Positions 4,779 to 47,472 are shown, numbered from the stretch's first letter. The stretch: DNA of 64,000 nt from Pseudomonadota bacterium (GCA_013285465.1 CP053449.1:1634735-1698734), one strand, 5' to 3'. The notes: generated from the sequence alone by a model not told the origin. Made by a program: numbers and translations.

Positions 4779-4800
4779 AACATCATATTAAAACGCATAG

Positions 4801-4881: not shown

Positions 4882-4891
4882 ATAGATGTTT

Positions 4892-12239: not shown

Positions 12240-12510
12240 CCTCTCCCTCCCCGCGCATCGCGAGGATATTGAAAGGCTCTTTTTTTAAATTTTTTCGCGC
12301 CATAGTAACCTCAACACCTTTTTGAAGGTTTCTCTCTTTCCTTCTGTTTTTATTTGATTTTTGCCCCGATGAAGCGCGCCCAGACTACCTTATTTTCGCC
12401 GTCAACTCAACAAAAAAACCCGCGATGAATTTTGCACAAGCTTGTCCATACAAAGCAAAAGGACGTATAATAAAATGCCTTTCGCAAATCTCCGACCCCG
12501 GTAAAAACTT

Positions 12511-30681: not shown

Positions 30682-33600
30682 TTAACCGCCCTCCGCCTCC
30701 TGCAATAGCGCATCTTTCAACACATCGCTCTGCTTTTTATAGTAATCGGCAATATCGGAGAGCTGCTGCGTCGTGTTGCGCATATAAGCAATCTGCTCCT
30801 GCAGCTGCCCTGCCGCGGAGATTTCCTGAACAGGCTCTTGCTGCGGCTGGCTGCCATAAAGCGCCTGAAACAGCCTGTTATTCATCAGATTATCCGGAAA
30901 CGGATTACGCGGTGCGTTATCATGCTCCGCCTGCACAGCCACATCACCGGTTTCTCTTCGTTGCAAAGGACTATCCTGAGCCGTTGCTTGATCCGGTAAG
31001 ACATTTTGCGAATCCGGCGGCGCATCCGGCCCGTTAATATTGTCACGGATTTGCTGTGACAAACCATCTGCACCGTAAAATGCCTGCAAGAAGCCGTCAC
31101 GAGAAGAATCCGTTGCCTGCCGGATCAGTTCATTCTCACCGCCAAAGATATCGGGGCGCAGATTGTTCTGCAAGTAGTCCAGAATACCGAAATAGCGCCC
31201 GCTTGCTCCGCCTGCAGCCGTGTCAAAACCGCGACGACTGCCCGGCGTGCCGTCCGCCGCTCCCTCATCCGGTGGAATAAAGCCGTTGAACTCGATTTCA
31301 TCAAGCACATTCATAACAAAAGCCTGATCGAAAAATCCGCCATTGCCGTCACTGACCCGAATTGTCACATTGTGATTATCCTTTGTTTCAAAATCGACCG
31401 CATCCATCAGACGCAGCATATTGCCCGCAATAGTGAATTTACCGTCCGGATCATTTTGAATGCTGTAGGTAAAGCTGTCGCCCGGCAGATCGGCATCCGT
31501 TGCCGACAATGTTGCAATATCCCCGCCGATCGCCGTCAGCTCAGGCACATCGGTGCCGGACAACATCACCGCCGTCGGAAAATCATTGACCGGATTAATC
31601 ACCAGCGGCTTGGTATTGACGATACTGGTATAGCCGCTTGTATCAGACACGGTAAAGGCGAAACTGTCCGATGTTACTTCGCTGCCGTCATGCGCATAAA
31701 GCAAGCGCCCCGCATCAATATCTGTTTGCGTAAACATCCCGCCAAGTCCGCGTGCCTCTCCCGCGTCCAATGTGCTGTTGCTATTGGCATCAACGAACAA
31801 TGTTCCGGTATCCGGCGCATCCGTCACAGTATAAATGATATGCCCGCCGTAAACGATCTGCGTTTCCGTCTGATAGAATGTATTCGGACTGAAATGATTG
31901 CGGTATTCGGCCGCCACCCATGCGCCGCTGGTTGTGCCTTCATAAACGCGCAAATTATCATACAGCCCGTCGTAATAAAGATTGTTGCGTCCGCCATCAA
32001 AACTCGTCGCCTCCGATCCGTCACCGATAAAGGCATAACGCGTCCCGTTTCCCAGACCTGTGCCGCCATGCGAATTGATATCGCGCGCCACTTCCACCCC
32101 GTCGACATAGAGGATTTTATCCGTGCCGTCATAAACAGCGGCAATATGGTGCCAATTGCCGTCATTGACTTTTACACCGGTGGAATAAAAATCATCAACA
32201 CCCAAGCCATTCCCCGAAGTGGAGAATGCGACACGCCCGTCCCCGTGAATATAGACATTAAAAAATTCACTGCGGTCAAAATCAATCAACGACCAGTTAT
32301 CGTTATAATTTGATACATTCACCGTCGTATTCACCCAGGCACTGACGGAGATTTGCTGCAGCGAATTATTACCCGATAAACCGTAATCCAGCGCAATATA
32401 TTCGGAATTGTTAAATTCCGCCCCGCTGCCGAAAGCGCCAGCAATCTGATTATCGCTGTCAAAACCGTTGCGGCCAAAGCCGTTATGCGCCGCTTGTGAA
32501 CTGTCGCTGACCTGCACATCGAAATCGCTCTCAAAATGCCAAACACCACCATATTCGCCGCGCCATGTTGTTGTCTGGTTGGTTTCGGCGGCGCCCGCAT
32601 TGCCGTAATAAATATAAAAAACCGTATCCGTTCCGGCTTTCAGATCTCCGCGCGTATAAAGCTGCATGCTTTGCGTCGCTGTATTGAATGCCACCAGCTC
32701 ACGGTCAAGTTTGGTCAAACCATCCGCACCGGTCACGACAATATCGGAGCCGTCCACCTTCACATTGCCCCAGAAATCCGCACCGAAGCCTGATTCCGTC
32801 AAGAACAGGGCAAAATCATCCAAATCAGCATCGACCAGATCATGGTCAACCACGATTTTCTGACGATAAGTCCAGCTGTTATCATACCATGCCGCATCAT
32901 AGGATAGTTCCGTATTGGTAATCGCCGTCACAGCCGCTTCATCTGCCGATGTTGTCGTCAACACATCCAATGCAGGTGTGATTTCCAAATTGACCGTATG
33001 CGGTCCTGTCACATTTTCCGCATCGCTGACGGTAAAGGAAAAGCTGTCCGTGCTATTGGCACCCGCACCATGCGTATAGCTGATTTTGCCATCCAGCACA
33101 TCCTGCTGTGTAAAACTATCGCCCACAGACAACGCAGCGCCGCTTAAAAACAACGTGCCGTTGGAGGTCAGAGCCGTCAGCTCGTATAACAATCCGCTAT
33201 CAGGATCATTGATATCCGTTGCCGTCAACACATCCGTTGTTAAAACAAGACTGCCGCCCTGCCCCAGAACGCCGATCCCTGTTTCCACTTGCGGCGGGCC
33301 TTTAAGCCATTTATCGACGATATAATCATTAATGTCGCTAACTTCCTGCGCCGTCAGCGCATGATTCCACGACCAGAATTCGCCGATATTTCCCTGAAAA
33401 TGAGACCCTGAGCCAAGATTGGCATCGCCAACCGGTGTCTGGCTGTCATTGGAATGCCCGATCGTGACATTACCGCTATGTGAGCCAAGCGTATCCACCC
33501 GCGTCAAAACCTGCGCAGGGCCGCCATTCAAGCTGACGGAGAAAGTGCGGTTGTTGATATCGGCATCCGTTGCATCATGCACCGCCGTCACATAATAAAC

Positions 33601-34152
33601 CGTATTTGCCGTGACGGCGCCAAGATTAACGGATTTATAGCGATCCGCCGCCGACCAATAGCTTTCCCCCCATGTATAAACATACAAATCGCCGCCGACC
33701 ATAATGATATTATAACCGTTGGAGCCGCCGCCCTGTTCATACAGCATTTGCGTACCGCTAATATCCGCACCGGTTTCAAACACCATCGCGAATGATTTTT
33801 CACTGTAACTGCCGGTATTGATTTCCGTTGCATTGGCAATATCAAGATAATCGGAGGTGCCGTCAAAATTGATAGCGCCTCTGCCTTCAAAGCCTGCCGC
33901 ATCAAATCTCGGGCGGTTGCCGCCGCTGCTTGCCGCGTCATAATTATTGCCGCTATCATCATCCCAACGGTCGATCAACGCCCCGTCCGCCGGTTGATCA
34001 TTCGTCAAACCGTCACCATCAACATCCAGCGCATCAAAATGAAAAATCGTATTGGCAATCACGGGGAAAGAGGCATCAAGCAACACACGCTGTTCCAGCG
34101 CCATCAGCGTCATTTTTGACGTTTTCGCCTTTTTCTCCTTCTCCAAAAACAC
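30682..34152 (-). CDS. Large extracellular-type protein with two LamG (concanavalin-like) domains, DUF2341 and cadherin-like repeats; no Sec signal and no RTX repeats
   Basis: First LamG: INFDGTSDYLDI...FQGNIGEFWSWNHALT. DUF2341-like: WTYRQKIVVDHDLVDADLDDFALFL. Second LamG: VWHFES...WHHIAAVYDG...YDNLRVY. Cadherin repeat: LSATDADLPGDSFTYSI...HNVTIRVSDGNG. GTG start at 34152, with alternative ATGs at 34113 and 34104. Confidence 0.85.
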   Translation of the reverse strand: MFLEKEKKAKTSKMTLMALEQRVLLDASFPVIANTIFHFDALDVDGDGLTNDQPADGALIDRWDDDSGNNYDAASSGGNRPRFDAAGFEGRGAINFDGTSDYLDIANATEINTGSYSEKSFAMVFETGADISGTQMLYEQGGGSNGYNIIMVGGDLYVYTWGESYWSAADRYKSVNLGAVTANTVYYVTAVHDATDADINNRTFSVSLNGGPAQVLTRVDTLGSHSGNVTIGHSNDSQTPVGDANLGSGSHFQGNIGEFWSWNHALTAQEVSDINDYIVDKWLKGPPQVETGIGVLGQGGSLVLTTDVLTATDINDPDSGLLYELTALTSNGTLFLSGAALSVGDSFTQQDVLDGKISYTHGAGANSTDSFSFTVSDAENVTGPHTVNLEITPALDVLTTTSADEAAVTAITNTELSYDAAWYDNSWTYRQKIVVDHDLVDADLDDFALFLTESGFGADFWGNVKVDGSDIVVTGADGLTKLDRELVAFNTATQSMQLYTRGDLKAGTDTVFYIYYGNAGAAETNQTTTWRGEYGGVWHFESDFDVQVSDSSQAAHNGFGRNGFDSDNQIAGAFGSGAEFNNSEYIALDYGLSGNNSLQQISVSAWVNTTVNVSNYNDNWSLIDFDRSEFFNVYIHGDGRVAFSTSGNGLGVDDFYSTGVKVNDGNWHHIAAVYDGTDKILYVDGVEVARDINSHGGTGLGNGTRYAFIGDGSEATSFDGGRNNLYYDGLYDNLRVYEGTTSGAWVAAEYRNHFSPNTFYQTETQIVYGGHIIYTVTDAPDTGTLFVDANSNSTLDAGEARGLGGMFTQTDIDAGRLLYAHDGSEVTSDSFAFTVSDTSGYTSIVNTKPLVINPVNDFPTAVMLSGTDVPELTAIGGDIATLSATDADLPGDSFTYSIQNDPDGKFTIAGNMLRLMDAVDFETKDNHNVTIRVSDGNGGFFDQAFVMNVLDEIEFNGFIPPDEGAADGTPGSRRGFDTAAGGASGRYFGILDYLQNNLRPDIFGGENELIRQATDSSRDGFLQAFYGADGLSQQIRDNINGPDAPPDSQNVLPDQATAQDSPLQRRETGDVAVQAEHDNAPRNPFPDNLMNNRLFQALYGSQPQQEPVQEISAAGQLQEQIAYMRNTTQQLSDIADYYKKQSDVLKDALLQEAEGG

Positions 34153-34249: not shown

Positions 34250-36376
34250 TCATAGAGCAGATTCCCGCCCCCAGAATGCCGCCAGTTTCTGCCAGAATAT
34301 CCAAAGCACGCTTTCGGCAGAGCTTTCAAGGCGTACCATCCCCCGCACAACGCGCGGGTTTGGTGCAAAATCTTTGATATCCGCCTCTACGGAGAACTGT
34401 GCGGCATAAAGCCCGTAACGCGCTGTCAGACCTGTTTTTCCGGGAGTTTCATCTGTCGGAATAGCACCGCCGAATCTCGCCGAAAGCTCCGGCCAATGCA
34501 GGGTATCACTGCTGTTCTCTGCCAGTTTATCCAAGCGCACGGGAAAATTTTCCGCAAAATCCGTATCGGGATAAAACAATCCCGCACGACCGAGAGTAAT
34601 TTTTTCTCTTTTGTTTTCATGTATATATCCGCTAATTGTTAATATATCAGGCTGCACCAGAATACCCAACCGCTGCGCAGGATTGATCCAGCGTCCTTGA
34701 TGCATATCCCCCGCCACATCGGTTAATATGCCGGATAAATCCGCCTTGATAACCAGCCTCTGCTGCTGTTCGCGCAAGCCGGACAATTTTTGCGCCGCCG
34801 CCGCCAATTTTTCTGTCAACGGCTCTTGTTCGGGATGGTCGCGGGCAAGAATTTGCTGCTGGTTCCGCAATTTTTGCAGCGATTGATAGTCCAGCTCCGC
34901 CAATGCGATCTGCTGTTGCAATTGCGGCGATTCAATGACGGCCAGAACATCCCCTTTTTTCACCTGTTGCCCCGCCGTCATATTGACCTCAATCAGCTTT
35001 CCGGCAACCGGTGTGTAAAGATGCGTATATGCGGCGCTATGCAGTACTGCGGGAATAGTGATCTTATGCGCACGCGGCATAGTGACCGCCACAAATACGC
35101 CAATGATAACGCACAAACTGATCAGGCTGTGGAGAGAATGGTATGATTTTTGCCGTTGCCGCCACCAGACGGTCACTTCCCGCCAGATTGGCAGAGCAAT
35201 AAACCATGCGATTTCCACAACCATCAGAAAGATATTCAAAGGCGGAAAAAACAGCGCAAAAACCACCCAGGCAATCCCCAAAAACAGGAACAAACGGTAT
35301 ATCCAGAGCGCAAAACCGAAAGACTGAAAAAAGCGCCGCTGCCGCAAAGGAATATCTTCCGGAACATCATCTTTCCAGCCCCATAACATGCGGCGCAAAC
35401 GCCATTTTGCCCAAAGACAGGCACGGTCCTGAAGATTTTCAATACCCAATACATCGGAAAGCAGATAATACCCGTCAAATTTCATCAACGGATTGAGATT
35501 GACCAGCAAGCTTCCGGTAAGAGAAACCAGCGCCACAAAGAAAGCAGTGCTTTTTCCAAGACCTACGGGAAGAAAACGCCACAGTAGCAGCGCAATAGCG
35601 GCCAGACTGATTTCAGTCAACACGCCTGCCGCCGCAATCGCCACACGCTTGCGCCTGTCGGTCAAAGACCATACACCCGTTGTTTCCGTGTATAACACAG
35701 GATAGAGAACAATAAAGGCCACACCGATGACCGGAACTTTGACCCCGTATTTTGTCGCCGTATAGGCATGCCCCAATTCGTGCAGCGTTTTCACGAAAAC
35801 TGTTGTCAGCGCAATCAGCGTAGCGCCTTCCCAATTCAGAATATTCTGAAAGCTGTGCAGAAATTCATCCATACGCTGAAATGTCATCAACAGCCCCGCC
35901 GCCAGCAGACAAAGCATCATCAGCATAAAGCGCTGCGATAATAACGGACGCAGCAATGGCAGGCTGCGTTCCAGAAAATTTTGCGGCTTAAAAAGCGGGA
36001 GCGTTACAAAAAGATAGCCGTGCAACGCCCTCTTCCAAAAAGGTTTTTCCGCGCGCTTAGTGCGCCTCTCATGTTGCGCAGATGACTGCGCTGTATTGCC
36101 TTGCACAAGCTGATTTCTCACCAGAAATACCGATAAATCTTCTACCGTTTCCGTATCGATTGTCAGCGTTGTTTCCGCATTAACAGCCCGGACAAGGTCA
36201 TCCGGCCGGCGGCAATCCGCCAAACGGCGCAGACATTCAAAAGCCGTCCAGCCGATTTTATAAAAGCGGTGTGCCAGCGGATCATAAATAACCCAATGCG
36301 GGGCACCATCCGCACCGGAGGCGGTTTTATCGATTTTTAAATCTTCCCGCAATAACGGCAGATCACCTTTTGCCAT
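34250..36376 (-). CDS. Fusion protein: PqqD/RRE-like N-domain, M50 site-2-protease membrane core and a C-terminal HlyD-like periplasmic adaptor domain
   Basis: HELGH is encoded at 35768-35782 and NLNPLMKFDG at 35474-35500 (the S2P HExxH and NxxPxxxxDG motifs). There are multiple TM segments. The C-terminal lipoyl/coiled-coil pattern is VAGKLIEVNMTAGQQVKKGDVLAVIESPQLQQQIALAELD. Confidence 0.85.
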   Translation of the reverse strand: MAKGDLPLLREDLKIDKTASGADGAPHWVIYDPLAHRFYKIGWTAFECLRRLADCRRPDDLVRAVNAETTLTIDTETVEDLSVFLVRNQLVQGNTAQSSAQHERRTKRAEKPFWKRALHGYLFVTLPLFKPQNFLERSLPLLRPLLSQRFMLMMLCLLAAGLLMTFQRMDEFLHSFQNILNWEGATLIALTTVFVKTLHELGHAYTATKYGVKVPVIGVAFIVLYPVLYTETTGVWSLTDRRKRVAIAAAGVLTEISLAAIALLLWRFLPVGLGKSTAFFVALVSLTGSLLVNLNPLMKFDGYYLLSDVLGIENLQDRACLWAKWRLRRMLWGWKDDVPEDIPLRQRRFFQSFGFALWIYRLFLFLGIAWVVFALFFPPLNIFLMVVEIAWFIALPIWREVTVWWRQRQKSYHSLHSLISLCVIIGVFVAVTMPRAHKITIPAVLHSAAYTHLYTPVAGKLIEVNMTAGQQVKKGDVLAVIESPQLQQQIALAELDYQSLQKLRNQQQILARDHPEQEPLTEKLAAAAQKLSGLREQQQRLVIKADLSGILTDVAGDMHQGRWINPAQRLGILVQPDILTISGYIHENKREKITLGRAGLFYPDTDFAENFPVRLDKLAENSSDTLHWPELSARFGGAIPTDETPGKTGLTARYGLYAAQFSVEADIKDFAPNPRVVRGMVRLESSAESVLWIFWQKLAAFWGRESAL

Positions 36377-36379
36377 CCC

Positions 36380-37720
36380 CTATACTCCCAGAAAGCGGCG
36401 CAGGGAAATCAAGGGTCGCCTGAACAGGCTGTAAGCCAGCAGGCTACGCCCGCCATAAATTTTTGCCGTCCCTGTCAGACCGATACGCGCCGCCTCACCT
36501 CCGTCAAAAGCGGCACGGATTTTATAAGTCAGCAAACCGTCAGCATCCATTGATGACTGATAACTAACGGTTTTCAGATATGCCTGATGTTTTTTCAATG
36601 GGGCAGTATTCAGGAAAAACGCCACCGGTTCCGCCTCGTCAATCGTCAGCATCGCATCTACGGGAACACGGATCAGCAGTTCCGTGTCATGCGGTGCTGC
36701 CAGCATCATAATCTTATCTCCCGTCCGCACAGGGCGGCCGCGCAAATCATTTTTATCGGAAAAAACCGCCACACCGTCACGTGGCGCCGTCATTACAGAT
36801 TGCGCAAGAAGCTGCCGCGCATAGCTTAATTCCTGCTGCCGCAAGGCGATTTCCGCCCGCAGCGCCGCCAGTGCCTGTTTTTTCTCCGGTGCCGTGATGG
36901 ATTCCCGCTCCGCTTTCGCCAGCACAGCCTGCGCCATAATCTGCCGGTGTTCCGCCTCCGCCACCTGACTGCGCAAAGCCGTATCGTCAATTTTTGCCAA
37001 GACCTCGCCCTGCTTGACCAGCGTATTGGGCTCAACCGGTATATCTGCCAATGTACCGTCAAAGGGGATGCTGATGACATAAGGGTCTTTTGCCACAATT
37101 TCCGCCGGTGCCGTCACCGCCAATCTGACCGGCCAGCACAGCACCGCCAATACGGACAGTGCCAGAATTTTTCCTTTCCAACCGCGCAACTTCTTGCTGC
37201 CGCCCTGCGTCAAAGCCTGCATGCCGTAACCGTAAGCATCTGCCAATTCATCCAGCAAGACTTTATCCAAAGCTGCAAAAGCCTCTTCCCGGTCTATCCA
37301 TAAAGCGCCTGTTACATTGCCATTCCGGTCATATAATGCCATCAATGCCGCATTGGCAGAGCACCATGTTTGCCAGTTTTTCTTATCCGCCCCTTCCGCA
37401 TCTTTTGCATCTTTTGCAGTCAGAATGCGTACAGCATCCTCCTCCTGTTGCGGCACATGCCGCGCAATAAAATCCGATAACCACAACAGATAAGGACTGT
37501 TTTTTTCCGTCTCTGTCAGGCCGGAAACCGTTTCAATACCGTTATCCCGCGTCCAGAGTAACGCTTGACGGTAGGGAACAAGACGGTAAGTTTCATTCAC
37601 CATCATAAATGCCAGCTCTGCCGCCGTCTTTTGACTGCGGGACTGCCGTTGCAACGAAAGCAGCAGAAGCAGCTTTTCAGCCTGCGCATCTATTTTTTTC
37701 GGATTTTTTTTACTCATCAC
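36380..37720 (-). CDS. Membrane-fusion (HlyD/RND-adaptor family) protein with a cytoplasmic, GAF-like N-domain of about 175 aa
   Basis: One TM (ILALSVLAVLCWPV), then FDGTLADIPVEPNTLVKQGEVLAKIDDTAL, a coiled coil, and VMTAPRDGVAV. Overlaps the upstream gene by 8-11 nt. Confidence 0.8.
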   Translation of the reverse strand: MMSKKNPKKIDAQAEKLLLLLSLQRQSRSQKTAAELAFMMVNETYRLVPYRQALLWTRDNGIETVSGLTETEKNSPYLLWLSDFIARHVPQQEEDAVRILTAKDAKDAEGADKKNWQTWCSANAALMALYDRNGNVTGALWIDREEAFAALDKVLLDELADAYGYGMQALTQGGSKKLRGWKGKILALSVLAVLCWPVRLAVTAPAEIVAKDPYVISIPFDGTLADIPVEPNTLVKQGEVLAKIDDTALRSQVAEAEHRQIMAQAVLAKAERESITAPEKKQALAALRAEIALRQQELSYARQLLAQSVMTAPRDGVAVFSDKNDLRGRPVRTGDKIMMLAAPHDTELLIRVPVDAMLTIDEAEPVAFFLNTAPLKKHQAYLKTVSYQSSMDADGLLTYKIRAAFDGGEAARIGLTGTAKIYGGRSLLAYSLFRRPLISLRRFLGV

Positions 37721-39155
37721 CCAAATCCTGCGGTACGTCTTCAGGATTTGCCGCCACTTTCAAGCCGATAAAGCCGAGCGGAGTTTTCTTGCGTGCGGCC
37801 CCGACATCAAAAATTGCCTTACCGCCCATACCGGGAAGCAGCTCCTCCTGATAAGATGACATCTCCGCAACGATTTCCGCCGTCTGACTGACCGGATCAA
37901 CTTTACCATGGACACGAATGACATGCGCCGGATATGTTTTACCGCTTTCCTCCACATAAACATCAAACGGCGTGCCGACATTCAGCCAGCGCAGCCAAAC
38001 AGACGGCACCAGAAATTGCAACAGCAGCGGTTCATTTGAAGAAATTTCCATCAACACACGCCCGCGTTCCGCGTATTCATAGGGGCTGGCCAACCTGTTT
38101 GTCACGCGCCCGTCAAACGGCGCCTTGATCGTGCAAAGAGAAATACGTTCTTCAACCTGCGCCAGGCGCGCCTGTTCTTGTGCCACGCTTTCCTGTGCCG
38201 CAATATATTCAATTTCGGATAATGTCCCTAATTTGCGCAATTGCTTTTTGGCTTTCAGTTCGGCATCAGCCAGACGCAGCGCCGCGTTTTTCTCATTGTA
38301 AAGCGCCTCTTCCATCGCACAGTCGAAACGCGCCAAAATATCTGCGGCAGAGAAAACATCACCGTTCTGGAAGGGAAAATCGAGAATTTTACCGCTCATC
38401 AGGCTTGAAATAACGGCCTGTCTGCGCGCGATCAGAACAGATTGCACTTCATGTGTCTCAACAGGTGCGTCGGACAAAGCCGGCAAGGCTTCCGCCGTTG
38501 CCGTTTCTACCGGATTATCCCCTGCTGCAGGCGCAATTTGCGCAAAAGTTTCAATATCATCCAGAACTTTTTGCATCGGGCTGAACTCTGGTGTGTTCTG
38601 CGCTTGCGCCGCACCCATTGCAATAACGGATACGGGTTGTGCAACTATTGTCTCGCGCGGCGAGACAGAGAAGAAAAATTTGCGCGATGATGCAAACTCA
38701 ACGGCTTTTTCCCCAAAGTTGTTAACCTTTTGCACAGCCGTTAGAACCGTATGGGAAGCCCCCAGCGTGAGAGGTGCATAAGCGTCAGCCACCTGTTGTT
38801 TGACCGCTGTCAGATCAGGCGCTTCCAGTTCCGTCACTTTCTGAACAAGCTGTTCCTGCAGAAGCGCCGTTTTCTCAAGTGCTTTCTGTCCCGCATCCCG
38901 CGCAAAAACGCCAAATGCCTGTAGTTTTTGTCCTGCAACGGCAGGCACGCGCCGCCAATCATCCTTATTGAACAAAAGCGGGTCGGACAATACCAGCATT
39001 AACCCCAGAACTGCGCCAAACAACACACAGGCAACAAACAGCGCACGGGTTTTACCCGTCGCCGTTTTGCGCTGCGCCTGTCCTGCGGATTTTCGTCCGA
39101 AGGGGGCGGCCTTGTTTTTTCCTCCCGATGCATCGAGCATAATGTCTCTTCGCAA
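37710..39155 (-). CDS. Membrane-fusion (HlyD family) protein with a long periplasmic spacer
   Basis: N-terminal TM (ALFVACVLFGAVLGLMLVL), a spacer of about 190 aa, then SGKILDFPFQNGDVFSAADILARFD, a coiled coil, and IKAPFDGRVT. Confidence 0.8.
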   Translation of the reverse strand: MRRDIMLDASGGKNKAAPFGRKSAGQAQRKTATGKTRALFVACVLFGAVLGLMLVLSDPLLFNKDDWRRVPAVAGQKLQAFGVFARDAGQKALEKTALLQEQLVQKVTELEAPDLTAVKQQVADAYAPLTLGASHTVLTAVQKVNNFGEKAVEFASSRKFFFSVSPRETIVAQPVSVIAMGAAQAQNTPEFSPMQKVLDDIETFAQIAPAAGDNPVETATAEALPALSDAPVETHEVQSVLIARRQAVISSLMSGKILDFPFQNGDVFSAADILARFDCAMEEALYNEKNAALRLADAELKAKKQLRKLGTLSEIEYIAAQESVAQEQARLAQVEERISLCTIKAPFDGRVTNRLASPYEYAERGRVLMEISSNEPLLLQFLVPSVWLRWLNVGTPFDVYVEESGKTYPAHVIRVHGKVDPVSQTAEIVAEMSSYQEELLPGMGGKAIFDVGAARKKTPLGFIGLKVAANPEDVPQDLGDE

Positions 39156-39178: not shown

Positions 39179-40696
39179 TTACAACACCGTATCAAGCTGT
39201 GTCAGGTGATATTTTTCGTCTTCTTTTTTTTGTTCTTCTCCGTCTTGGCTTCCGGCATTCTGCCAAATATCCACGCCCAAGCTGTTCAACATGCGTGCAT
39301 AAGCATGTTGTGCTGCCTGATAGGCAAAACTTCTGTCCCATTGCAGCAGAGCATAATCGAGCTCCGTGTTGAGAACACTTAAATCACTGCCTAGACCCGC
39401 CTCGCGCTTGCGCGTCGCGCTACGCAAAATCTTCCGGTAATTATCCGCCTGTTCATCCATTTTTAAAAACTGGCTGCGGCTTTCTTCCAGCTGCTGTTTT
39501 GCGACATGAACCTGCGCAATCACCGCAACCAACAAGGCATAACGCTGCTTATCAGACAGCGCTTTTTTGTTCTTGGCCTGTTCATAACGCTGCGGCAGTG
39601 TAAACAAATCCATCAGCATTGCGGAAAGCGATACCGAGAAATTCGCCCAGTCCTGATCGGATAGAAAGGAATTCGTATCTTTGTTCAGCCCCAGAAAGAA
39701 GCGCGCACCCGGCAAAACCTCCAGCACAGTGGTTTTGATATCACGCAGGGCGATACGTTCTTTCAAAAAAGCCTCTTTGATTTCAGGGCGGTTCATCAGC
39801 GCTGTTTCCTGCAGCTTTTCGCTGTCCTGCTCCAGCTTGGGAAACTCTGCGGATGTCAGCCAATTTTCCCGCGGCAAATGCAACGTCACTTTATCTTCGG
39901 GTGACAACCCGACCAGTGTCTTCAGCTCCAGCATCGCTTGCGCAACATCGCGGCGCTTTTCCGCCAGCGCGTTGCGCTTGCGAAGCAATTCCTCTTTTTT
40001 CTGCAAACCGCTTTCATACGGGATGACGCCTTTTTGTATGGCCTGTTCCAAATCCGCCAACCGCCCGTCAGATTCTTTCAGCAACGCGGCATGTTTCTCT
40101 GCTGTTTCCTGTTCCGCCGCAGCGCGCCAGAAGGCAACATAGACATCCTGTGCCAGATTTTGCAGCACTTTGCGGCGGCGTTCATGTGCAATCAGCACGC
40201 GATCAGATGCCGTACGTGCATGGGCAACTGTGACGGCGGCATCCAGAATATTCCAGCTCGCTTCCAATTGCGCCGTGCGGCGGTGCCTGTCTGTGGAAAT
40301 GGATGGTTCCAGTGATTGCATTCCCGTTAAAGCCGAACGGCTAGATGACGCACCTGTATTACTGCGTCCCTGATAGGATGCGCCGGCTTCGATCTGCGGC
40401 AACAGGCTCAATTTTTCGATATTGTATTCACCGCTGCGAAGCAGCTCTTCCATCAGCGCGACCTGCACATCCAGATTGCGTTTCACAGCCAGATCAAGCG
40501 CCTGATCCAGCGTCATCTGCAAGATGCCGTCATTTTTCTGTGCGATGACTTCCAAATCGCTGCGCAGTTTTTCCGTGTATTCCCGATCCCCCATCGGCGC
40601 AGTCGCCGTCGAACAGGCCGTCAAAAACAACAGCTCGGACATCAGTAAAAAAAAACTGCCAAGACGAAAAAAATTTATGCTGGAATAAAGACCCAT
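39179..40696 (-). CDS. TolC-like outer membrane efflux lipoprotein (OMF family)
   Basis: Lipoprotein signal with lipobox LLFLTAC. TolC-type N-terminus LTLDQALDLAVKRNLDVQVA and two OEP repeats. ATG at 40696; the longest ORF (TTG) reaches 40717. Confidence 0.85.
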   Translation of the reverse strand: MGLYSSINFFRLGSFFLLMSELLFLTACSTATAPMGDREYTEKLRSDLEVIAQKNDGILQMTLDQALDLAVKRNLDVQVALMEELLRSGEYNIEKLSLLPQIEAGASYQGRSNTGASSSRSALTGMQSLEPSISTDRHRRTAQLEASWNILDAAVTVAHARTASDRVLIAHERRRKVLQNLAQDVYVAFWRAAAEQETAEKHAALLKESDGRLADLEQAIQKGVIPYESGLQKKEELLRKRNALAEKRRDVAQAMLELKTLVGLSPEDKVTLHLPRENWLTSAEFPKLEQDSEKLQETALMNRPEIKEAFLKERIALRDIKTTVLEVLPGARFFLGLNKDTNSFLSDQDWANFSVSLSAMLMDLFTLPQRYEQAKNKKALSDKQRYALLVAVIAQVHVAKQQLEESRSQFLKMDEQADNYRKILRSATRKREAGLGSDLSVLNTELDYALLQWDRSFAYQAAQHAYARMLNSLGVDIWQNAGSQDGEEQKKEDEKYHLTQLDTVL

Positions 40697-40755
40697 AGAG
40701 ACCAAATTTTCTAACAATTAGGGGCGGCAGAGAAGCCGAGCGAAAGCCTAGAGAA

Positions 40756-40776: not shown

Positions 40777-40804
40777 ATTTTACGCTCTTCTCCATACAGG
40801 TCAA
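40777..40804 (-). promoter_or_regulatory. Sigma70-like promoter candidate for the TolC/MFP/M50 operon (TTGACC-16 nt-TAAAAT)
   Basis: On the minus strand, TTGACC is at 40804-40799 and TAAAAT at 40782-40777, with a 16-nt spacer. It is 80 nt upstream of the ATG at 40696. Confidence 0.4.
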
Positions 40805-41245: not shown

Positions 41246-42502
41246 TCACGCCATCATCCCAAAACGGCGGATAGCTTCATAACCCAGCCCCAGACCGACA
41301 CTAGACAGCTTATTCTCCTCAGATATCTCCGCCTGTGGAAATTTGGCTGCGATTGTTTCTTTCAACAATGGTACCTCTGTCGTACCGCCCGTCAAAATAA
41401 TCAATTCCACCGCCTCTTCTGCGATTTGCGCCTGCCGCAAACAATCATCAATATCGGCAATAATCGCACGCACATGTTTCTCCACCGCATCATTAAAAAC
41501 GCTGCGCGCCACAGTAACGGAAAACGCCTCCTCTACAAAATCAAGCGATGCCGTCACTTGCAAATGCTCCGTCAGTCCGATTTTACAATCTTCAACCGCC
41601 GCCAAGAGCTGATGGCCTTTTTCCTCCTCCAGCAATTTGATATAGCGTGAAAACTTTTCCGGCGCATGTGACTGCGGCAAAATATCCCGCATCTGCTTGT
41701 GCATTTTCGGCGTGTATAAAAAGTTGATTTTCGACCATTCGGACATGTCATGGAACGGCACAGCCGGAAGCGGTAGGTTTTTCTCGCCGTAATCCGTGCC
41801 GTATCCGAAATCGGGCATGAAGGCACGCAGACTTAAATCCTTGTCAAAATCATTTCCGCCAATACGGATACCGGAATTGCCGAGAATGTCATCCGTGCGG
41901 TCAGCTTTATCCATCACATCCTGCGCCAGACGAATGACGGTAAAATCCGATGTACCGCCTCCGATATCGGCAACAAGTGCCAGTTTTTCAGATGGAAGAT
42001 TTCTTTCATGCGCAAAAGCGGCCGCGATCGGTTCATACTGAAAAGCGACATGTTTAAACCCGACGGCTTGCGCGATATTCTGCAATTCGTCCTGCGCACG
42101 ACTATCGGTTTTGCTGTCATTATCGGCGAAATGCACGGGTCTGCCCATAACGACATTTATCATTTCAACGCCGCTGTGCTGCTCTGCCACAGCTTTCATA
42201 TGGCCGATAAAATCACCCAGAACATCTTCAAATTTCTTCAGCTTTCCATTTACCACCGTGCCGTCATTCATCAGGCTGGTACCCAGAATACGTTTCAGAC
42301 TGCGCATGAAACGCCCCTCTTCCCCCTCCATAAAAAGCTGCATCGCCTGTTTGCCGAAACAGGGCTGCGGCGCAACGGCAGAATAGAAAACGGCACTCGG
42401 AATCGTTATGCCGTCCTCTTCCAGAGGCACAAGCGTCACGGCGCGTTCCCTGCAAAGGGCAAGCGTTGAATTCGAGGTTCCAAAATCAAGACCGCAATTC
42501 AT
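41246..42502 (-). CDS. Hsp70-family ATPase (YegD-like)
   Basis: GLDFGTSNS phosphate-1 motif, DIGGGTSDFT phosphate-2 and LTGGTTEVP. About 420 aa with no substrate-binding domain. Confidence 0.88.
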   Translation of the reverse strand: MNCGLDFGTSNSTLALCRERAVTLVPLEEDGITIPSAVFYSAVAPQPCFGKQAMQLFMEGEEGRFMRSLKRILGTSLMNDGTVVNGKLKKFEDVLGDFIGHMKAVAEQHSGVEMINVVMGRPVHFADNDSKTDSRAQDELQNIAQAVGFKHVAFQYEPIAAAFAHERNLPSEKLALVADIGGGTSDFTVIRLAQDVMDKADRTDDILGNSGIRIGGNDFDKDLSLRAFMPDFGYGTDYGEKNLPLPAVPFHDMSEWSKINFLYTPKMHKQMRDILPQSHAPEKFSRYIKLLEEEKGHQLLAAVEDCKIGLTEHLQVTASLDFVEEAFSVTVARSVFNDAVEKHVRAIIADIDDCLRQAQIAEEAVELIILTGGTTEVPLLKETIAAKFPQAEISEENKLSSVGLGLGYEAIRRFGMMA

Positions 42503-42663
42503 TGAAATAACTGTTCTGTTTGATGGCAGCGCAAATGCCTTTCATAGATAGGAAGGATGGCCGCATTTGTCAAGCAGGGGTACGGAGGAGGCTGCATATA
42601 GGGCTGGCGCAACCTGAAATATCTCATCTATAATCACAGACAGTATAATGACAATCTTGTAGC

Positions 42664-43311
42664 ATGGTTTCAAATATGCCGGATTTTACAGTTTTCGACA
42701 AAACAATACTGGTCACAATTGCCAGCGCAGCGGCAGCATTCCTTATTGTTCTGGGTGTCGGGCTGACGCTTGTCAAAAACAAAAGCCGGACAGAACTGAA
42801 GCGCCAAAAAACACGCGGCGGCAAGGAATGGCAAAATGCCCGCCAAAAAATACGCTTTTTCCGTTTCAAAAATGCGCGTGAAATACTGATTATTTTTTCA
42901 CTGCTGGCACTGATCGCTCTGGGGAAATTTCTGGAACCGTCCCCGCCTGCCGCAGATACACACAGCGCCAAAGACGGCAAAAGCAGCAGCACAATTTTCT
43001 GCCATTCCCCCTACATTATTGACGGCGATACTTTCGACTGTATCGGCACGCGCATACGTCTGACGGGGATTGATGCGCCGGAAATGCCCGACCATTGCAG
43101 AGCCGGGCGACGCTGTACCAAAGGCGATCCCTTTGCCGCAAAAGATCATCTGAAGACTTTAACAACGGGCTGGGTAAAATGCCACGCCATCGAAATTGAC
43201 CATTACGGGCGCACCATTGCCCGTTGCACTGTAAAGGATATCGATCTTTCCTGCGCGATGATCGCCTCCGGCCATGCCGTCCGGCGTTACAGCCGTATTT
43301 CCTGCCCTTAA
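42664..43311 (+). CDS. Thermonuclease (SNase-like) family protein with an N-terminal membrane anchor
   Basis: TM ILVTIASAAAAFLIVLGVGL. Nuclease motifs IIDGDTFDC...IRLTGIDAPE and DHYGRTIARC. Confidence 0.8.
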   Translation: MVSNMPDFTVFDKTILVTIASAAAAFLIVLGVGLTLVKNKSRTELKRQKTRGGKEWQNARQKIRFFRFKNAREILIIFSLLALIALGKFLEPSPPAADTHSAKDGKSSSTIFCHSPYIIDGDTFDCIGTRIRLTGIDAPEMPDHCRAGRRCTKGDPFAAKDHLKTLTTGWVKCHAIEIDHYGRTIARCTVKDIDLSCAMIASGHAVRRYSRISCP

Positions 43312-43320
43312 GTCCGGCAA

Positions 43321-46300
43321 TCAGAAACTGCCGACAATATTGAAGAAAACACCGCGGCTTTGATAATCAAGATTGGTCAGATCATCCGAGAAATCCGTGA
43401 AGTTATAACCGACGCCCAGTTTGACATTCTCGTTAAAATGCCGGTACACGCCGATCAAGCCGCCGGCTTTTGCGTCACCGGCATCTTTGGCATCAAGATA
43501 GCGCAGCTCACCCGTCACATCCCATTCATGCACCACATGCCAGTCAGCACGTGCCACGCCCAGCCATGCCGTGCTACTGAACCACGGCGTACCTGCCGCC
43601 GTCGTATCACGCAATTCGCCGACACGGTATCCCAACTTGCCGCCCACCGATAGTTTAGGAAACAGATCATAAATAAAATCGCCCGAGAAGACATGACTGC
43701 GCTGTTCATAGCCGTTTGCAGCACCTGTGCCAGAGACTTGCCCCGGGCTACCCTCATCAGACAAATAAGTGTAACGCACCAGCGCATTCAATTTGTCGTT
43801 CAAAACGGGGCGGTAGCCAAAGCCCATATTCAGCTCGGTAAAATTCGCATCCGTCGTGCTACCTGTACCCGCATCGCTGAGAGCAACATCCAGTCCGCCC
43901 GAGAAACGCCAATCTTCCGAAACCTGATAGGCCAGCGTATTTTTCATCAGCCATGATGTTCTGTCACCTGTCGTATTGCCGCTTTCTTCGCGCCATTCCA
44001 GCGTACCGCCATAGCGGACTTTATCGCGGGTATAACCTGCGGAGACGGAGGCCGCAATCCGGTCAAGATCACCGGTTGCCGGGTCAGAGGTTTTTCCGGT
44101 TTCAAATTTACCGCCCCATGTCCAGCGGTCGCTGGCAGCAAGGTCCAGCCCCATCGCATGCATAATGCCGGACTGCCCCTGCTGCGCATGCAGATAACGC
44201 TGCTCGGAAAATACCGACAAATTATCAGTATAGCGGGAGCGCGTTCCCGCCACGAGCGTATTGCTGCGCCCGTTATTGCCCGTATCAGTGCGCCCTGTGT
44301 CAGACAGATAATTGATATAATGGCTGGTACGGTCGTCCACACGGTAATCCAGCCCCGCCTTGCCGCCGAGACCGTCATCGCCGCCTGTCAGTTCGCCGCT
44401 GATTTCCAGCCGGTCATTCAGGCGGAATAAACCGCCGCCGCCGTAACGGTCATTGCCCAGCCGCGTCGTATCACGGTGCAGCGTTGTTTGCGCAAGGCCG
44501 TAAATTTCGTAACGCCCCGGCGTGCCCTCTTCCGTCAACGGCGCATAACCAAGTTTTACAAGCGCGTCCGTCCGCTGCCCTGTTTGCGCCAGCACCGTAC
44601 TACCGCCTGCCGCCAGCGCCGTATCACGGTCATCATGCCGCGCGCCGAATGTCAGCGTTGTTTCCTGTGACAATGCGTAATCCACACCCGCCTCGACCGC
44701 TTTATAACTGCCGGTCGTTTTGCCTTCCTTGAAATCGGCCTTCGCTGTGAAATCCAGCCTGTCCGACACCGGCAGACGGAGCATACCGCCTGATTGTTCT
44801 ACGCCTTCATTTGTCAGCTGCCCCGGCGCGGAAAAGCCGTTTTGCCTGTTCAGCCAATATCCCGATAATGTCCCGTTTTGTCTGCCATCCGTCAGTTCGG
44901 CAAAATCAGCGGCAATCTCTATACGGTGCGCATCCGCATCAATACCCGCCGTTCCCGTTTGCGGGATAGCGCCAAAATTGAAACCGCCATTCTGTGAGGA
45001 CATGCCGCCTGTTCCCGGACCGTCAGAACGTGCGGTTTCCAGTTTTAGATATGTGCCGGGTTTGTAACGCAGCGTCATATCCGCCCCCAAAAGGCTTTGC
45101 TGCCTGCCTGTACCTTTTTGTTCATAACCTGATGCGCCAACCCGCAGATGATCATTCACCCAATGGCTGACGCGCCCGCCTTTTGTCATGTTATCAACGG
45201 AAGAAACGCCGGGGGTAAATTCATAGCCCGCGACAAGATAAACCGGATTGCCGCCTTGTGTGCCGTTCAGGATGAAGGCGGAAATACCCGCCGTTGATTC
45301 CAGCGGCGTGCTTAAAATAACGCGCCCTTGAATATAATTGATGTCGTAATCCTGTCCGTAAATCAGTGTTTTGGATTCCAGTACGATACCTGAATCCTGA
45401 TCGCGCACCTCAACACGCAGCCTTTCCGAGCCGATGACCAAATCCTGATTGCGCAAATAGTAAAGTGACCCGCCCGTGCCGCGGAATTCTTCAATCGCAT
45501 CTAATGTGCCGGGATCGGCCGCGAACAGATCAAGCTCCGTACGTTTTTCACCGAAAGCCGTTGTTGTCATACTGCCGTGATGCGCTTCGGCACCGTAAAG
45601 CGTACGGCTGAAATTCATCAGATCGGTTCCCGTCAATCGGGTCTGAAAACTGCCCCATAGAACTTTCGTATCGTTTTTTTCAACCTTCACATAGAATTTT
45701 CCCAAAGTCGGCGCATCTTCGATCAGCGTGGAATCATCGCCGTAAACCGGATAATAAGCACTAGGGTCAAGGCGGCGCAGCAGGCTGCGGGCATCTTTTT
45801 CATCGAATTGCGAAAAAATATCCTCAAGCGGTTTTTCCTGTGTATCGGCGCTGGAAGTCACTTGCCAGCCATTCTTCAATTTGCCTTTGGTGTAATAGGC
45901 CAAACGCCCTTCGGCATATAGTTTTTCATTATAGCGATCGCTGTTTTTTCCGGTCACCAGCGCCGCCGGGCCTTTCACATCATTCAGCCCCATCGTCAGA
46001 TCCGCAATCCCGACAGTGAACCATTCCTGCGACGGAATATTGATATGACGATTGAATTCCGCACGGCCGCCATCCGTTTTTTCAAGCACCACATCAACAT
46101 CGTGATCGCCTGCGGGCAGTATCTGCTCCACGGCAAATTTACCCTGCGTATCCACCGGAACCGGCTGCCCCATTACCAGAACCGTTTCCCCTGCGGCGAT
46201 ACCATCACCATTCACCGTCACCGTGCCGCCATGAACCGGAATATTGCGCAAACCGATATGGTTCTCCCCATATCCCGTCAACATCTCGCGTGTTTTGCCT

Positions 46301-47472
46301 TCATCGGGCTGTGCGCCACGCCGCGCATCCAGAATATCCATCACTTTCGGCGTCGTTTCGTCGAAACGACCTTTCCCGTCATAGACGCGCAGCAAATATT
46401 TTACCGCCGTCAGAGTATTATCCTGCGGCACTGCCCATGTAATTTCGCCAAAAGAACCATCAAAAGGCAGAACAGCCAGCGGCGGTTTATCTGTTGAGAC
46501 ACCTTCCTTGAAAATCCGCAATTCCGCTTTTTTGATAAAGGCGCGGTAATTTGTATAGGGAAGGAAAGAAACCGTCTCCCCTCTGACCGCGCCCTCCGGC
46601 CAGACCGTCACATTCAGAACAGGCTCAATCTCCAGCCCGTCAAAACGCAGCTGAATATCCGCTTTTTCAAGTGCGATATCCGTGCAACGCGTTACATCCG
46701 CGCTATTGGGAACATCTTCTCCCGGAGCCGTTTCGCCATCAATGGAAATACGGAACGGCAAATCACTATCCTGCGCAGGCGCATCTTTGCACACCCCCGC
46801 CTGCGGCACAGCATAAGCGGCTGTTTTATACCAGACGCGTAGCTCCGCGCGACGATCATCAGCCATGCAATCCTGATAATCCAGCTGCGCCTGTTCCGGC
46901 GTTTCCGCACCAGCCATATCCAGCTGACATTCCGTCGCCGCCGCACTGTCTCCCATCCCTGTGATGCGCACAGGCACATTCTGCCATGCCTCCAATTCAC
47001 GCAGATAGGCGGCAACTTCTTTCGCACGGGCAACGGAGAGAGCATGGTTATCAGCATAATATTTGCGCGACTCTTTTGATAAAGGCTGTTTATCGGTATA
47101 GCCGACAATCTCGGCGCGCTCGATCTCTCGTCCCTGCAGCTCTGTAGCAAGATGTGTCAGCGAGGCTTTTCCCGCATCCGATAATTGATGCCGCCCCGAT
47201 GCGAAATACGGCACATCAGCATTCCCCAATTTGGAAATCTCAGCCTTTTTGCGCCACAATACCAACACTTCATCCGCAGGACGGCGGTATTCCGTATCTG
47301 GTGGCACAGCGCGTTTCACAACCCGCGAGACCATCGCCGTTTTTCCCGGCTGATCCAGCGGCGGGCAAGTGTCGCAATCCTCCCCGATCGCCGGCGAATT
47401 CCCTGCCAGAAATGCGACGGCAACACCGGTCAGTAAAAGATATTTCGATGCGGCGCGGGAGAATATCATCAT
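43321..47472 (-). CDS. Very large outer-membrane protein: signal peptide, N-proximal OmpA-like domain and a C-terminal beta-barrel
   Basis: Signal peptide (LLLTGVAVAFLAGNSPA). OmpA-like segment FASGRHQLSDAGKASL...IVGYTDKQP...NHALSVARAKEVAAYL. Long alternating-hydrophobic beta-strand region ending in the OMP signature ...FFNIVGSF. The ATG overlaps the upstream stop as ATGA. Confidence 0.8.
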   Translation of the reverse strand: MMIFSRAASKYLLLTGVAVAFLAGNSPAIGEDCDTCPPLDQPGKTAMVSRVVKRAVPPDTEYRRPADEVLVLWRKKAEISKLGNADVPYFASGRHQLSDAGKASLTHLATELQGREIERAEIVGYTDKQPLSKESRKYYADNHALSVARAKEVAAYLRELEAWQNVPVRITGMGDSAAATECQLDMAGAETPEQAQLDYQDCMADDRRAELRVWYKTAAYAVPQAGVCKDAPAQDSDLPFRISIDGETAPGEDVPNSADVTRCTDIALEKADIQLRFDGLEIEPVLNVTVWPEGAVRGETVSFLPYTNYRAFIKKAELRIFKEGVSTDKPPLAVLPFDGSFGEITWAVPQDNTLTAVKYLLRVYDGKGRFDETTPKVMDILDARRGAQPDEGKTREMLTGYGENHIGLRNIPVHGGTVTVNGDGIAAGETVLVMGQPVPVDTQGKFAVEQILPAGDHDVDVVLEKTDGGRAEFNRHINIPSQEWFTVGIADLTMGLNDVKGPAALVTGKNSDRYNEKLYAEGRLAYYTKGKLKNGWQVTSSADTQEKPLEDIFSQFDEKDARSLLRRLDPSAYYPVYGDDSTLIEDAPTLGKFYVKVEKNDTKVLWGSFQTRLTGTDLMNFSRTLYGAEAHHGSMTTTAFGEKRTELDLFAADPGTLDAIEEFRGTGGSLYYLRNQDLVIGSERLRVEVRDQDSGIVLESKTLIYGQDYDINYIQGRVILSTPLESTAGISAFILNGTQGGNPVYLVAGYEFTPGVSSVDNMTKGGRVSHWVNDHLRVGASGYEQKGTGRQQSLLGADMTLRYKPGTYLKLETARSDGPGTGGMSSQNGGFNFGAIPQTGTAGIDADAHRIEIAADFAELTDGRQNGTLSGYWLNRQNGFSAPGQLTNEGVEQSGGMLRLPVSDRLDFTAKADFKEGKTTGSYKAVEAGVDYALSQETTLTFGARHDDRDTALAAGGSTVLAQTGQRTDALVKLGYAPLTEEGTPGRYEIYGLAQTTLHRDTTRLGNDRYGGGGLFRLNDRLEISGELTGGDDGLGGKAGLDYRVDDRTSHYINYLSDTGRTDTGNNGRSNTLVAGTRSRYTDNLSVFSEQRYLHAQQGQSGIMHAMGLDLAASDRWTWGGKFETGKTSDPATGDLDRIAASVSAGYTRDKVRYGGTLEWREESGNTTGDRTSWLMKNTLAYQVSEDWRFSGGLDVALSDAGTGSTTDANFTELNMGFGYRPVLNDKLNALVRYTYLSDEGSPGQVSGTGAANGYEQRSHVFSGDFIYDLFPKLSVGGKLGYRVGELRDTTAAGTPWFSSTAWLGVARADWHVVHEWDVTGELRYLDAKDAGDAKAGGLIGVYRHFNENVKLGVGYNFTDFSDDLTNLDYQSRGVFFNIVGSF

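Follow-up and report, generated by a model that had tools for sequence, protein, structure and literature searches.

Classical type 1 secretion (HlyA with HlyB/HlyD/TolC; RTX proteins) places a membrane fusion protein (MFP) and a TolC-like outer membrane factor (OMF) beside a large, acidic, Cys-free, repeat-rich cargo that has no Sec signal, carries GGxGxD repeats, and is read by an ATP-binding cassette (ABC) transporter through a conserved, helical extreme C-terminus (the last ~60 aa). Export of double-glycine-leader bacteriocins and microcins (CvaAB-TolC) in Gram-negative bacteria also uses an MFP and TolC, with an N-terminal leader of the form LSxxELxxIxGG that is read and cut by a C39 cysteine protease fused to the ABC transporter. 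The precursors of ribosomally synthesized peptides with post-translational modifications (RiPPs) are short and are recognized by a RiPP recognition element (RRE), as in PqqD, TbiB1, and TfuB1; the membrane metalloproteases of the M50 family that serve RiPPs (EpeP/YydH, TglG/TmoG, daptide HExxH) remove leaders, and for EpeP a double role in cleavage and export of its product has been suggested (PMC10885120). Giant adhesins of the LapA type have an N-terminal retention module and are released by the periplasmic cysteine protease LapG, which would control surface display. Here, we analyze a 64,000-nucleotide stretch of DNA from a Pseudomonadota bacterium (GCA_013285465.1, CP053449.1:1634735-1698734; hereafter “the window”), in which the gene for a LamG/cadherin protein (30682..34152) lies beside a four-gene module that shares features with these systems.

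The LamG/cadherin gene, the four module genes, and the candidate promoter described below are all on the minus strand. The module consists of a TolC-like OMF of 512 aa with the lipobox LLFLTAC (39179..40717), a first MFP of 481 aa (37710..39155; RND_mfp, 105 bits), a second MFP of 446 aa with a conserved cytoplasmic N-terminal domain (36380..37720), and a 708-aa fusion protein (34250..36376) that joins an RRE-fold domain and an M50 protease domain to an HlyD domain. The LamG/cadherin gene follows the fusion gene, and we call its product the cargo for brevity. As in type 1 secretion, an MFP and a TolC-like OMF stand beside a large, acidic, Cys-free, repeat-rich protein that has no Sec signal and whose extreme C-terminus is conserved and helical. 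Unlike type 1 secretion, the module has no ABC transporter and three MFP-type proteins instead of one, of which one is fused to an RRE-M50 protease; the cargo has no GGxGxD repeats and a conserved N-terminal motif. At the C-terminus, where type 1 substrates have an uncleaved signal, the cargo has a conserved helix and motif, for which scans returned no known family of C-terminal signals.

In our judgment, the system is most nearly analogous to the export of bacteriocins, whose leaders are cut during export by a peptidase that is part of the transporter: at this locus too, a leader would be read, and probably cut, by a peptidase fused to an exporter that works with an MFP and a TolC-like protein. 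The differences are that an intramembrane metalloprotease of the M50 family takes the place of the C39 cysteine protease, that it is fused to an MFP and not to an ABC transporter, and that the cargos of such modules measure 1000 to > 4000 aa and have LE-x-R...D-(G/A)-A as their presumed leader motif. The leaders of peptidase-ABC cargos end in GG, GA, or GS; after the LEPR-like motif, D-(A/G)-(A/S) is near-invariant. The N-terminal domain of the fusion has the three strands followed by three helices of RiPP-recognizing RREs, but its presumed ligand is the N-terminus of a giant protein and not a short precursor peptide, and the window operon contains no modifying enzymes. The protease belongs to the same family as the RiPP M50 proteases but is fused to RRE and HlyD domains and embedded in a tripartite envelope module. 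As with LapA/LapG, a dedicated protease might here cut an N-terminal element of a giant adhesin and thereby control its display; there is, however, no match to a retention module, no ABC transporter in the module, and an intramembrane M50 protease in place of LapG. We rate the system as tripartite, type-1-like secretion with a RiPP-style recognition and cleavage unit where the ABC transporter would be.

We think it somewhat better than an even chance that the LamG/cadherin protein is the dedicated cargo of the adjacent module, with its LEPR-like leader bound by the RRE domain and cut by the M50 protease and its passenger exported. The basic stretch and the motif LE-x-R-h-h-(F/L)-D-(A/G)-(A/S) would together act as a system-specific leader, most likely bound by a cytoplasmic RRE domain and probably removed by the M50 active site, after which the unfolded, acidic, Cys-free passenger would exit through the MFP/TolC-type duct; the conserved C-terminal helix would be a second required element. 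The parts of such a machine would be a TolC-like OMF lipoprotein, two MFPs, and a fusion protein with its RRE domain in the cytoplasm, its M50 metalloprotease in the membrane, and its HlyD domain in the periplasm. We infer export, and with it an inner-membrane route and an energy source. The initial annotation had proposed that this protein is the substrate of the adjacent machine and that its N-terminal motif is tied to M50-HlyD operons, a proposal that comparative genomics, as far as it goes, supports.

The evidence that carries this reading is the linkage between motif and module, which together with the cargo gene make up a conserved unit of five parts. An alignment of 24 M50-HlyD family members, used alone as the query, retrieved 80 metagenome loci with as much as 10 kb of flank, and in these the OMF-MFP-MFP-M50/HlyD order is kept wherever the flanking DNA suffices. 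A hidden Markov model of the motif, built from 37 N-terminal 26-mers and run against 3133 six-frame open reading frames (ORFs) of at least 90 aa, gave 41 matches at 26 bits or more; the next best match scored 4.5 bits, with none between. Every one of the 41 is the N-terminus of a large ORF adjoining the module. Motif-positive loci number 33 of the 80 overall and 24 of the 38 with at least 5 kb of downstream flank, so that the co-occurrence check suggested in the initial annotation came out strongly positive; by our estimate, which is not a computed figure, a genome with a few such genes would have one of them within 10 kb of any given locus in about 1% of cases. Most of the positive cargo ORFs are on the M50-HlyD strand and start 23-4372 nt past the M50-HlyD gene, and a few lie 5' of the OMF gene. 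Among the apparent negatives, at least eight have a giant ORF 5' of the OMF gene whose N-terminus is not visible because the ORF runs off the fetched DNA.

The same arrangement is found in cultured organisms. A tblastn search of plasmids with the M50-HlyD protein returned 68 records, and we looked closely at three cases. In Azospirillum brasilense, a 3399-aa “DUF4347 domain-containing protein” that begins MALEPRFMFDAAG is followed by the module; on E. coli IncFIA/FIB plasmids, a 4459-aa “Ig-like domain-containing protein” begins ...RFALESRQLFDGAA and is likewise followed by the module, the N-terminal stretch of the 4459-aa protein on an IncF plasmid reading ...FALESRQLFDGAA; and on the chromid of Cupriavidus metallidurans CH34, a 3750-aa ORF that begins ...LALEPRLLYDAAAG precedes it. 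Complete E. coli genomes carry the module in 24 of 5426 cases, mostly on IncF-type plasmids. On one such E. coli plasmid (NZ_CP081687.1, 44829-64580; L089/L090), insertion sequence elements flank the LEPR-like/DUF4347/cadherin protein and its module. In the Azospirillum cargo (L088, 527-2026), the DUF4347 region after the motif weakly resembles Peptidase_C80, the self-cleaving cysteine protease domain of MARTX toxins, at an E-value of 0.022 that is below threshold.

We also searched in the reverse direction, from the N-terminus to the module. With a LEPR-plus-DUF4347 N-terminus as the query against plasmids, all 11 of the records listed whose match reaches the first two query residues are M50-HlyD positive. 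DUF4347 proteins are present on 40 Phaeobacter plasmids, and Phaeobacter is absent from the organisms reported for M50-HlyD matches; on the one plasmid inspected, from Phaeobacter DSM 17395, the DUF4347 protein opens directly with its DUF4347 domain and has no LEPR N-terminus, ends in RTX repeats, and has no module within 14 kb. The module therefore tracks the LEPR N-terminus and not the passenger domain. On this control we rejected DUF4347 as the module-linked feature, and the window cargo has no DUF4347 domain by Pfam. A profile search with 44 N-terminal residues recovered only fragments of 48-76 aa at contig ends; two LEPR fragments found in this way (P0160 and P0163) both adjoin the module. 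The canonical LEPR-XLL protein P0035, too, has a PqqD-M50-HlyD homolog as its neighbor.

In the window, the motif (ALEQRVLLDASFPVIANT, aa 18-35, or 16-33 when counted from the likely TTG start; 34048..34101) is a candidate leader or targeting peptide. It follows a basic stretch, EKEKKAKTSK (aa 4-13; 34114..34143), and homologs are K/R-rich there as well. Scanned alone against the NCBIfam family NF012209 (LEPR-XLL), the cargo N-terminus scores 20.3, 21.7, or 23.1 bits depending on segment length, against a cutoff of 17; when the full-length cargo is scanned at E ≤ 0.01, NF012209 is not listed. Two features place the cargo in NF012209: its score is above cutoff, and its motif stands at the very N-terminal end of a large protein made of repeats. 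The window motif reads LEQRVLL where the family has LEPRxLL (Gln for Pro). Judged by this profile, the motif is real and no chance match; the ALEQRVLLDAS seen in the initial annotation is present, and the statement there that such an N-terminal motif recurs without an assigned function was accurate, the motif being already curated as LEPR-XLL.

Across module-linked N-termini, the consensus is (L/S)(L/I)x(A/S)-L-E-(P/K/S/Q)-R-(L/I/M)-(M/L)-F-D-(A/G)-A, and an Ala-rich stretch comes next. Within the motif, L, E, R, and D are invariant, and D-(A/G)-(A/S) is near-invariant after it. NF012209 is matched by 17 of 25 such N-termini, and no other family is matched by any of them. In our literature search, we found LEPR-XLL mentioned in two papers only, each time in passing, and none gave a function, so that the name is known and the function is undescribed in the searchable literature.

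The cargo itself has the features expected of a protein that crosses the envelope unfolded. Its domains, by Pfam, are a first LamG domain (Laminin_G_3, aa 97-272; 33337..33864), a cadherin-like domain (Cadherin_3, aa 296-390, the best of two matched stretches; 32983..33267), a second LamG domain (Laminin_G_3/Laminin_G_2, aa 584-747; 31912..32403), and cadherin-like repeats (31339..31716), in which Cadherin PF00028 takes up aa 868-938 and NCBIfam adds a partial match to tandem-95 at aa 813-862. Two LamG domains and cadherin-like repeats had been assigned earlier and are borne out, whereas the DUF2341 assigned with them is only a sub-threshold segment (aa 467-537; 32542..32754; 17.1 bits against a gathering score of 23.4). 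The full protein has 0 Cys, which makes a lipobox impossible, and a net charge of -106; its first 50 aa contain no uncharged hydrophobic run longer than 7 residues, and a sequence scan found no twin-arginine motif. By these hydropathy, motif, and Cys checks, no Sec, Tat, or lipoprotein signal is present, nor are there GGxGxD repeats anywhere in the cargo or a PF00353 match in Pfam, in agreement with the absences listed in the initial annotation. The retention-module family of LapA-like proteins is not matched by the full cargo, for which the NCBIfam scan gives only the weak tandem-95 match. By composition and motif content, the cargo shows the hallmarks of proteins secreted unfolded.

Nine homologs of the cargo, at 47-99% identity, have three features in common: their N-terminus shows a basic stretch and then L-E-(Q/K/R)-R-(V/L)-(L/M)-(L/F)-D-A-(S/A), their acidic C-terminal region contains L(Q/S)AFYG, and they end in a helix of the form ...Q(L/F)xD(I/V)xxY(Y/H)xx(Q/R)xxxL(K/R)xALL. 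Homologs at 48-55% identity have the module as their neighbor. The two on long contigs (P0005, 55% identity; P0008, 54%) adjoin the OMF-MFP-MFP-M50/HlyD module, with the cargo 3' of the module in one locus and 5' in the other and with unrelated flanking genes. In the Rhodospirillales genome CP060238.1 (L003), three tandem cargo paralogs with differing passenger domains all begin LEKRLMLDA and are near-identical over their C-terminal ~90 aa. Such a layout, in which the termini stay constant and the passengers between them vary, would be expected of secretion substrates.

Turning to the module, the “RRE-like” label given to the N-terminal domain of the fusion (aa ~1-95; 36092..36376) is confirmed at the level of the fold. 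A profile of the first 118 aa, searched against 177,635 PDB sequences, matched only PqqD (3g2b, E 0.1) and TfuB1 (6jx3_B, E 0.26). An AlphaFold2 (AF2) model of the domain, with a predicted local distance difference test score (pLDDT) of 85.9, shows three strands and then three helices. In a Foldseek search of this model against the PDB, the top eight matches were all RRE proteins (TbiB1, TfuB1, TigE, CteB), with a probability of 1.0 for the top seven and 0.94 for the eighth (CteB) and target-normalized TM-scores of up to 0.68; the entries for TbiB1 and TfuB1, from lasso-peptide systems, are complexes with leader peptides. On the strength of the model, the domain has an RRE fold. A homolog in the variant cluster L092, 26% identical to the window fusion, matches PF05402 (PqqD) at 25.5 bits, above the gathering score.

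The protease domain of the fusion matches PF02163 (M50) at 28.9 bits against a gathering score of 27.2. Its HExxH zinc-binding motif (H199, E200, H203; 35768..35782) and the NxxPxxxxDG motif typical of site-2 proteases (N293, P296, D301, G302; 35471..35500) are intact and are invariant in 24 aligned members. The best NCBIfam matches are NF041824 and NF058609; the matches to RiPP M50 proteases, among them daptide HExxH (144 bits) and YydH/LiaK, are all below the family cutoffs. Among the four module genes of the window there is no ABC, resistance-nodulation-division (RND), or major facilitator superfamily (MFS) transporter and no C39 domain; across 87 loci, ABC-like ORFs were seen in four and never within the module. 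No tailoring enzymes are present in the window operon. The M50-HlyD family is large, with 919 matches in a word-indexed search and, in an exhaustive search at E ≤ 1e-30, 3261 representatives at 50% identity, the top 150 of which are all ~700-aa fusions aligned end to end. We found no paper that describes an RRE-M50-HlyD or M50-HlyD secretion module.

A different assignment of roles to the two ends of the cargo is suggested by its C-terminus. The acidic, Gln-rich C-terminal region (30811..31335), with the conserved LQAFYG motif at 31072-31089, is mostly predicted to be disordered and leads into a terminal helix (aa ~1115-1156; 30685..30810) that carries TTQQLSDIADYYKKQSDVLKDALL, the C-terminal motif of the cargo class. 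Gln makes up 17% of the last 70 aa. With 10 homologs, AF2 predicted the C-terminal 217 aa to be mostly disordered and then to form a single ~43-aa helix (aa ~1113-1155, pLDDT 70-85); the Gln/Glu-rich helix reported earlier is thus real and shorter than the ~70 aa first proposed. No NCBIfam or Pfam family is matched by the C-terminal 237 aa even at E ≤ 10. Of 23 non-redundant cargos, 10 have the motif (S/T/P)-(L/F)-x-x-Q-(L/I/V/F), with an amphipathic L..AL segment after it, in their last 55 aa, against only 15 of 753 internal windows of the same proteins; the pattern was drawn up post hoc, from the data themselves. The E. coli, Azospirillum, and C. metallidurans CH34 cargos have this motif too. 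From these comparisons, the C-terminus is not merely a Gln/Glu-rich helix; it holds a second element conserved across the cargo class, one that competes with the N-terminus as candidate signal. The module could then be handling this same cargo with the C-terminal helix as the secretion signal, as in type 1 secretion, and with the LEPR motif used during or after export, either for retention or anchoring at the inner-membrane complex or for release of the adhesin by M50 cleavage, much as with the LapA retention module and LapG. We regard this as unlikely, yet as the alternative that most deserves attention. It would account for the recurrence of the C-terminal motif, in the cargo-homolog alignment as well as in the three cultured organisms; for the disordered acidic region ending in a long helix, which resembles type 1 signals; and for the near-identical ~90-aa C-terminal segment of the L003 paralogs. 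An acidic, Cys-free composition is shared with type 1 substrates, and a Vibrio protein of ~8000 aa pairs LEPR-XLL with RTX and serralysin-type C-terminal domains (PMC10868602). The difficulty for a C-terminal signal is that the module has no ABC transporter to read it, that an RRE fold is a binder of leader peptides, and that the C-terminal motif, besides being post hoc, is absent or degenerate in about half of the cargos; the N-terminal motif, with its invariant L, E, R, and D, is more sharply conserved.

Two further explanations seem much less probable. Export might take place in two steps, with LEPR as an unusual SecA-dependent signal, the M50 protease as its signal peptidase at the inner membrane, and the three MFPs and the OMF carrying the passenger over the periplasm and outer membrane. 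The module has no motor of its own, the variant cluster L092 contains a SecA paralog (SecA_DEAD, 286 bits), and in L055 a SecA-like gene is directly 3' of the M50-HlyD gene; set against this, SecA-like genes are near only one of the 80 metagenome loci in addition to L092, the cargo N-terminus has no hydrophobic core (longest uncharged run, 7 residues) and keeps charged E, R, and D invariant within the motif, and a Sec-type signal needs no RRE domain. We consider such a route improbable. Slightly less probable still is that the adjacency reflects co-regulation or co-inheritance, the module handling some other substrate, such as a small peptide, and the giant protein leaving the cell by another path or not at all. 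The best family matches of the M50 domain are indeed RiPP leader peptidases (daptide HExxH at 144 bits, below cutoff, and YydH/LiaK), RRE domains normally serve small peptides, and some six well-flanked module loci show no giant ORF. Yet the link between motif, giant ORF, and module persists in loci from alpha-, beta-, and gammaproteobacteria and from metagenomes, among which gene order varies, and multi-cargo loci swap passenger domains while keeping both termini. The 97-nt gap in the window contains no small ORF; no systematic search for conserved small ORFs was made.

Several observations weigh against our preferred reading, in which the LEPR-like N-terminus is the leader and the module its exporter. 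About 6 of the 38 well-flanked module loci have no obvious cargo. The C-terminus is comparably conserved and may itself be the true secretion signal. Among the module genes, we could identify neither an inner-membrane translocase nor an energy source, and the case for export, leader binding, and cleavage is made from comparative and model evidence. Pfam PqqD goes undetected in all 24 members of the window subfamily, and at the sequence level PqqD (E 0.1) and TfuB1 (E 0.26) are only marginal matches. Alignment-averaged hydropathy of the M50-HlyD protein gives 7 or 8 transmembrane segments with ambiguous loop charges; because the segment count is ambiguous, a cytoplasmic RRE domain and a periplasmic HlyD domain are assumed. 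The reverse tests are small and partly biased to the FDGA subtype of the motif. Canonical LEPRxLLSAD proteins, which have a C-terminal membrane anchor and were found through passenger-domain similarity, fit less well: of three canonical LEPR-XLL proteins sampled, P0035 clusters with GAF-HlyD, PqqD-M50-HlyD, a SecA paralog, and an MFP, but P0027 and P0022 have no module within 10 kb. The Vibrio LEPR-XLL protein with RTX repeats, too, raises the prospect that the role of the motif may be more general (PMC10868602). Because the canonical LEPR-XLL and Vibrio proteins differ, the tight link to the module holds for the FDGA/LDAS subtype seen here, and the broader LEPR-XLL domain may have a more general role.

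Should the preferred reading be correct, it would provide the first function for LEPR-XLL, a curated domain that is used for RefSeq protein names, and would define a new secretion class with a wide distribution in Proteobacteria (3261 clusters at 50% identity, to which E. coli plasmids are added). Giant surface proteins of a large family would then have a route of secretion, tripartite type 1 secretion would be extended by a member without an ABC motor, and RRE domains would be seen to act beyond the biosynthesis of small peptides. In its broadest form, the proposal is that LEPR-XLL is the leader of an undescribed ABC-free secretion pathway, with recognition by the RRE domain, removal by the M50 protease, and a three-MFP/TolC-like duct for giant adhesins; this we put forward tentatively, as somewhat short of an even chance. 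Hosts that carry the module and are tractable include E. coli, Azospirillum brasilense, and Cupriavidus metallidurans CH34, and a motif-plus-module rule is usable for annotating cargos that are now labeled “Ig-like” or “DUF4347 domain-containing protein.”

As to the cargo gene itself, the initial annotation placed the ORF at 30682-34152 (1156 aa, GTG start), 97 nt from the M50-fusion gene, and both statements hold; the start is probably six nucleotides further in. A Shine-Dalgarno sequence, AGGAG (34160-34156), stands 9 nt upstream of a TTG at 34146 and only 3 nt from the GTG at 34152, and P0001, a protein from another assembly that is 99% identical to the window cargo, is called from the equivalent TTG with 1154 aa. 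Because of this spacing and this start call, TTG 34146, giving a 1154-aa protein, is the likely start, which widens the gap to the M50-HlyD gene (34250..36376) to 103 nt. A stop codon lies in frame 8 codons 5' of the GTG, which excludes a hidden N-terminal signal peptide; the initial annotation had allowed for a true start further upstream that encodes a normal signal peptide, and this is thereby ruled out.

The 97-nt gap contains no terminator-like or promoter-like site. A terminator-like hairpin at 34101-34087 was not taken for a terminator: it falls within the ORF, where it overlaps the LEQR codons, and its T-tract is weak. A promoter-like site 5' of the OMF gene (40777..40804), with 10 of 12 consensus matches and identified by consensus match only, is a candidate operon promoter. 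In the first MFP gene (HlyD1 ORF, 37710-39155), the “MLDAS” within the first 12 codons (LRRDIMLDAS) resembles the RVLLDAS of the cargo; we attribute this to coincidence or to an over-extended ORF, and LRRDIMLDAS is kept only in close relatives (L006 and, in part, L008). The N-terminal ~170 aa of the second MFP form a conserved domain with …ELxFxxVNETxRLxxYRQA…; the window copy has no Pfam match, and the corresponding domain of the L092 homolog (759-2222) matches GAF at 24.4 bits against a gathering score of 22.4.

Further observations concern the related loci. The C-terminal motif of the window cargo recurs in the module-linked cargos of L090, L088, L096, L033, L038, L060, L068, and L080. In several high-GC loci (L037, 12214-16102; L053, L066, L081, L084), the M50-HlyD gene and the cargo are separated by accessory genes; by sequence motifs only, these look like tail-collar/MdpB-like paralog arrays (MSDPFxGEIRMFAGxxAP...), a GNAT-like gene, and a sulfotransferase-like gene, and they may encode cargo-modifying or accessory proteins. 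The canonical LEPR-XLL proteins of L091, L092, and L093 share a C-terminal transmembrane domain (…GYVLWLxRGGxL…PAWRxxDPLP…), and a PAS or histidine-kinase gene is found 3' of each of their genes, which suggests that those with a membrane anchor are a separate, signaling-linked subfamily. In L092, the SecA paralog (4368-6311, 647 aa) is located between the PqqD-M50-HlyD and MFP genes, beside a canonical LEPR-XLL/DUF4347 protein, and the SecA-like gene of L055 spans 12318-15044; as these are the only two such loci, we rejected a SecA paralog as a general component of the module.

The genes outside the cluster are unrelated to it, with a convergent DUF389 gene on one side and, on the other, genes for an Hsp70-like protein, an SNase homolog, and an OmpA/beta-barrel protein. 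The latter three lie 5' of the operon (41246-47472) and encode, respectively, a truncated Hsp70/MreB-like ATPase of 418 aa, an SNase homolog that has a membrane segment at its N-terminus, and an OmpA-domain protein of 1383 aa whose C-terminus is a beta-barrel. No counterpart of the OmpA-domain gene was seen beside the distant modules inspected; in the relative L006, the ORF at the start of the locus has a C-terminus that matches that of the window's 1383-aa protein.

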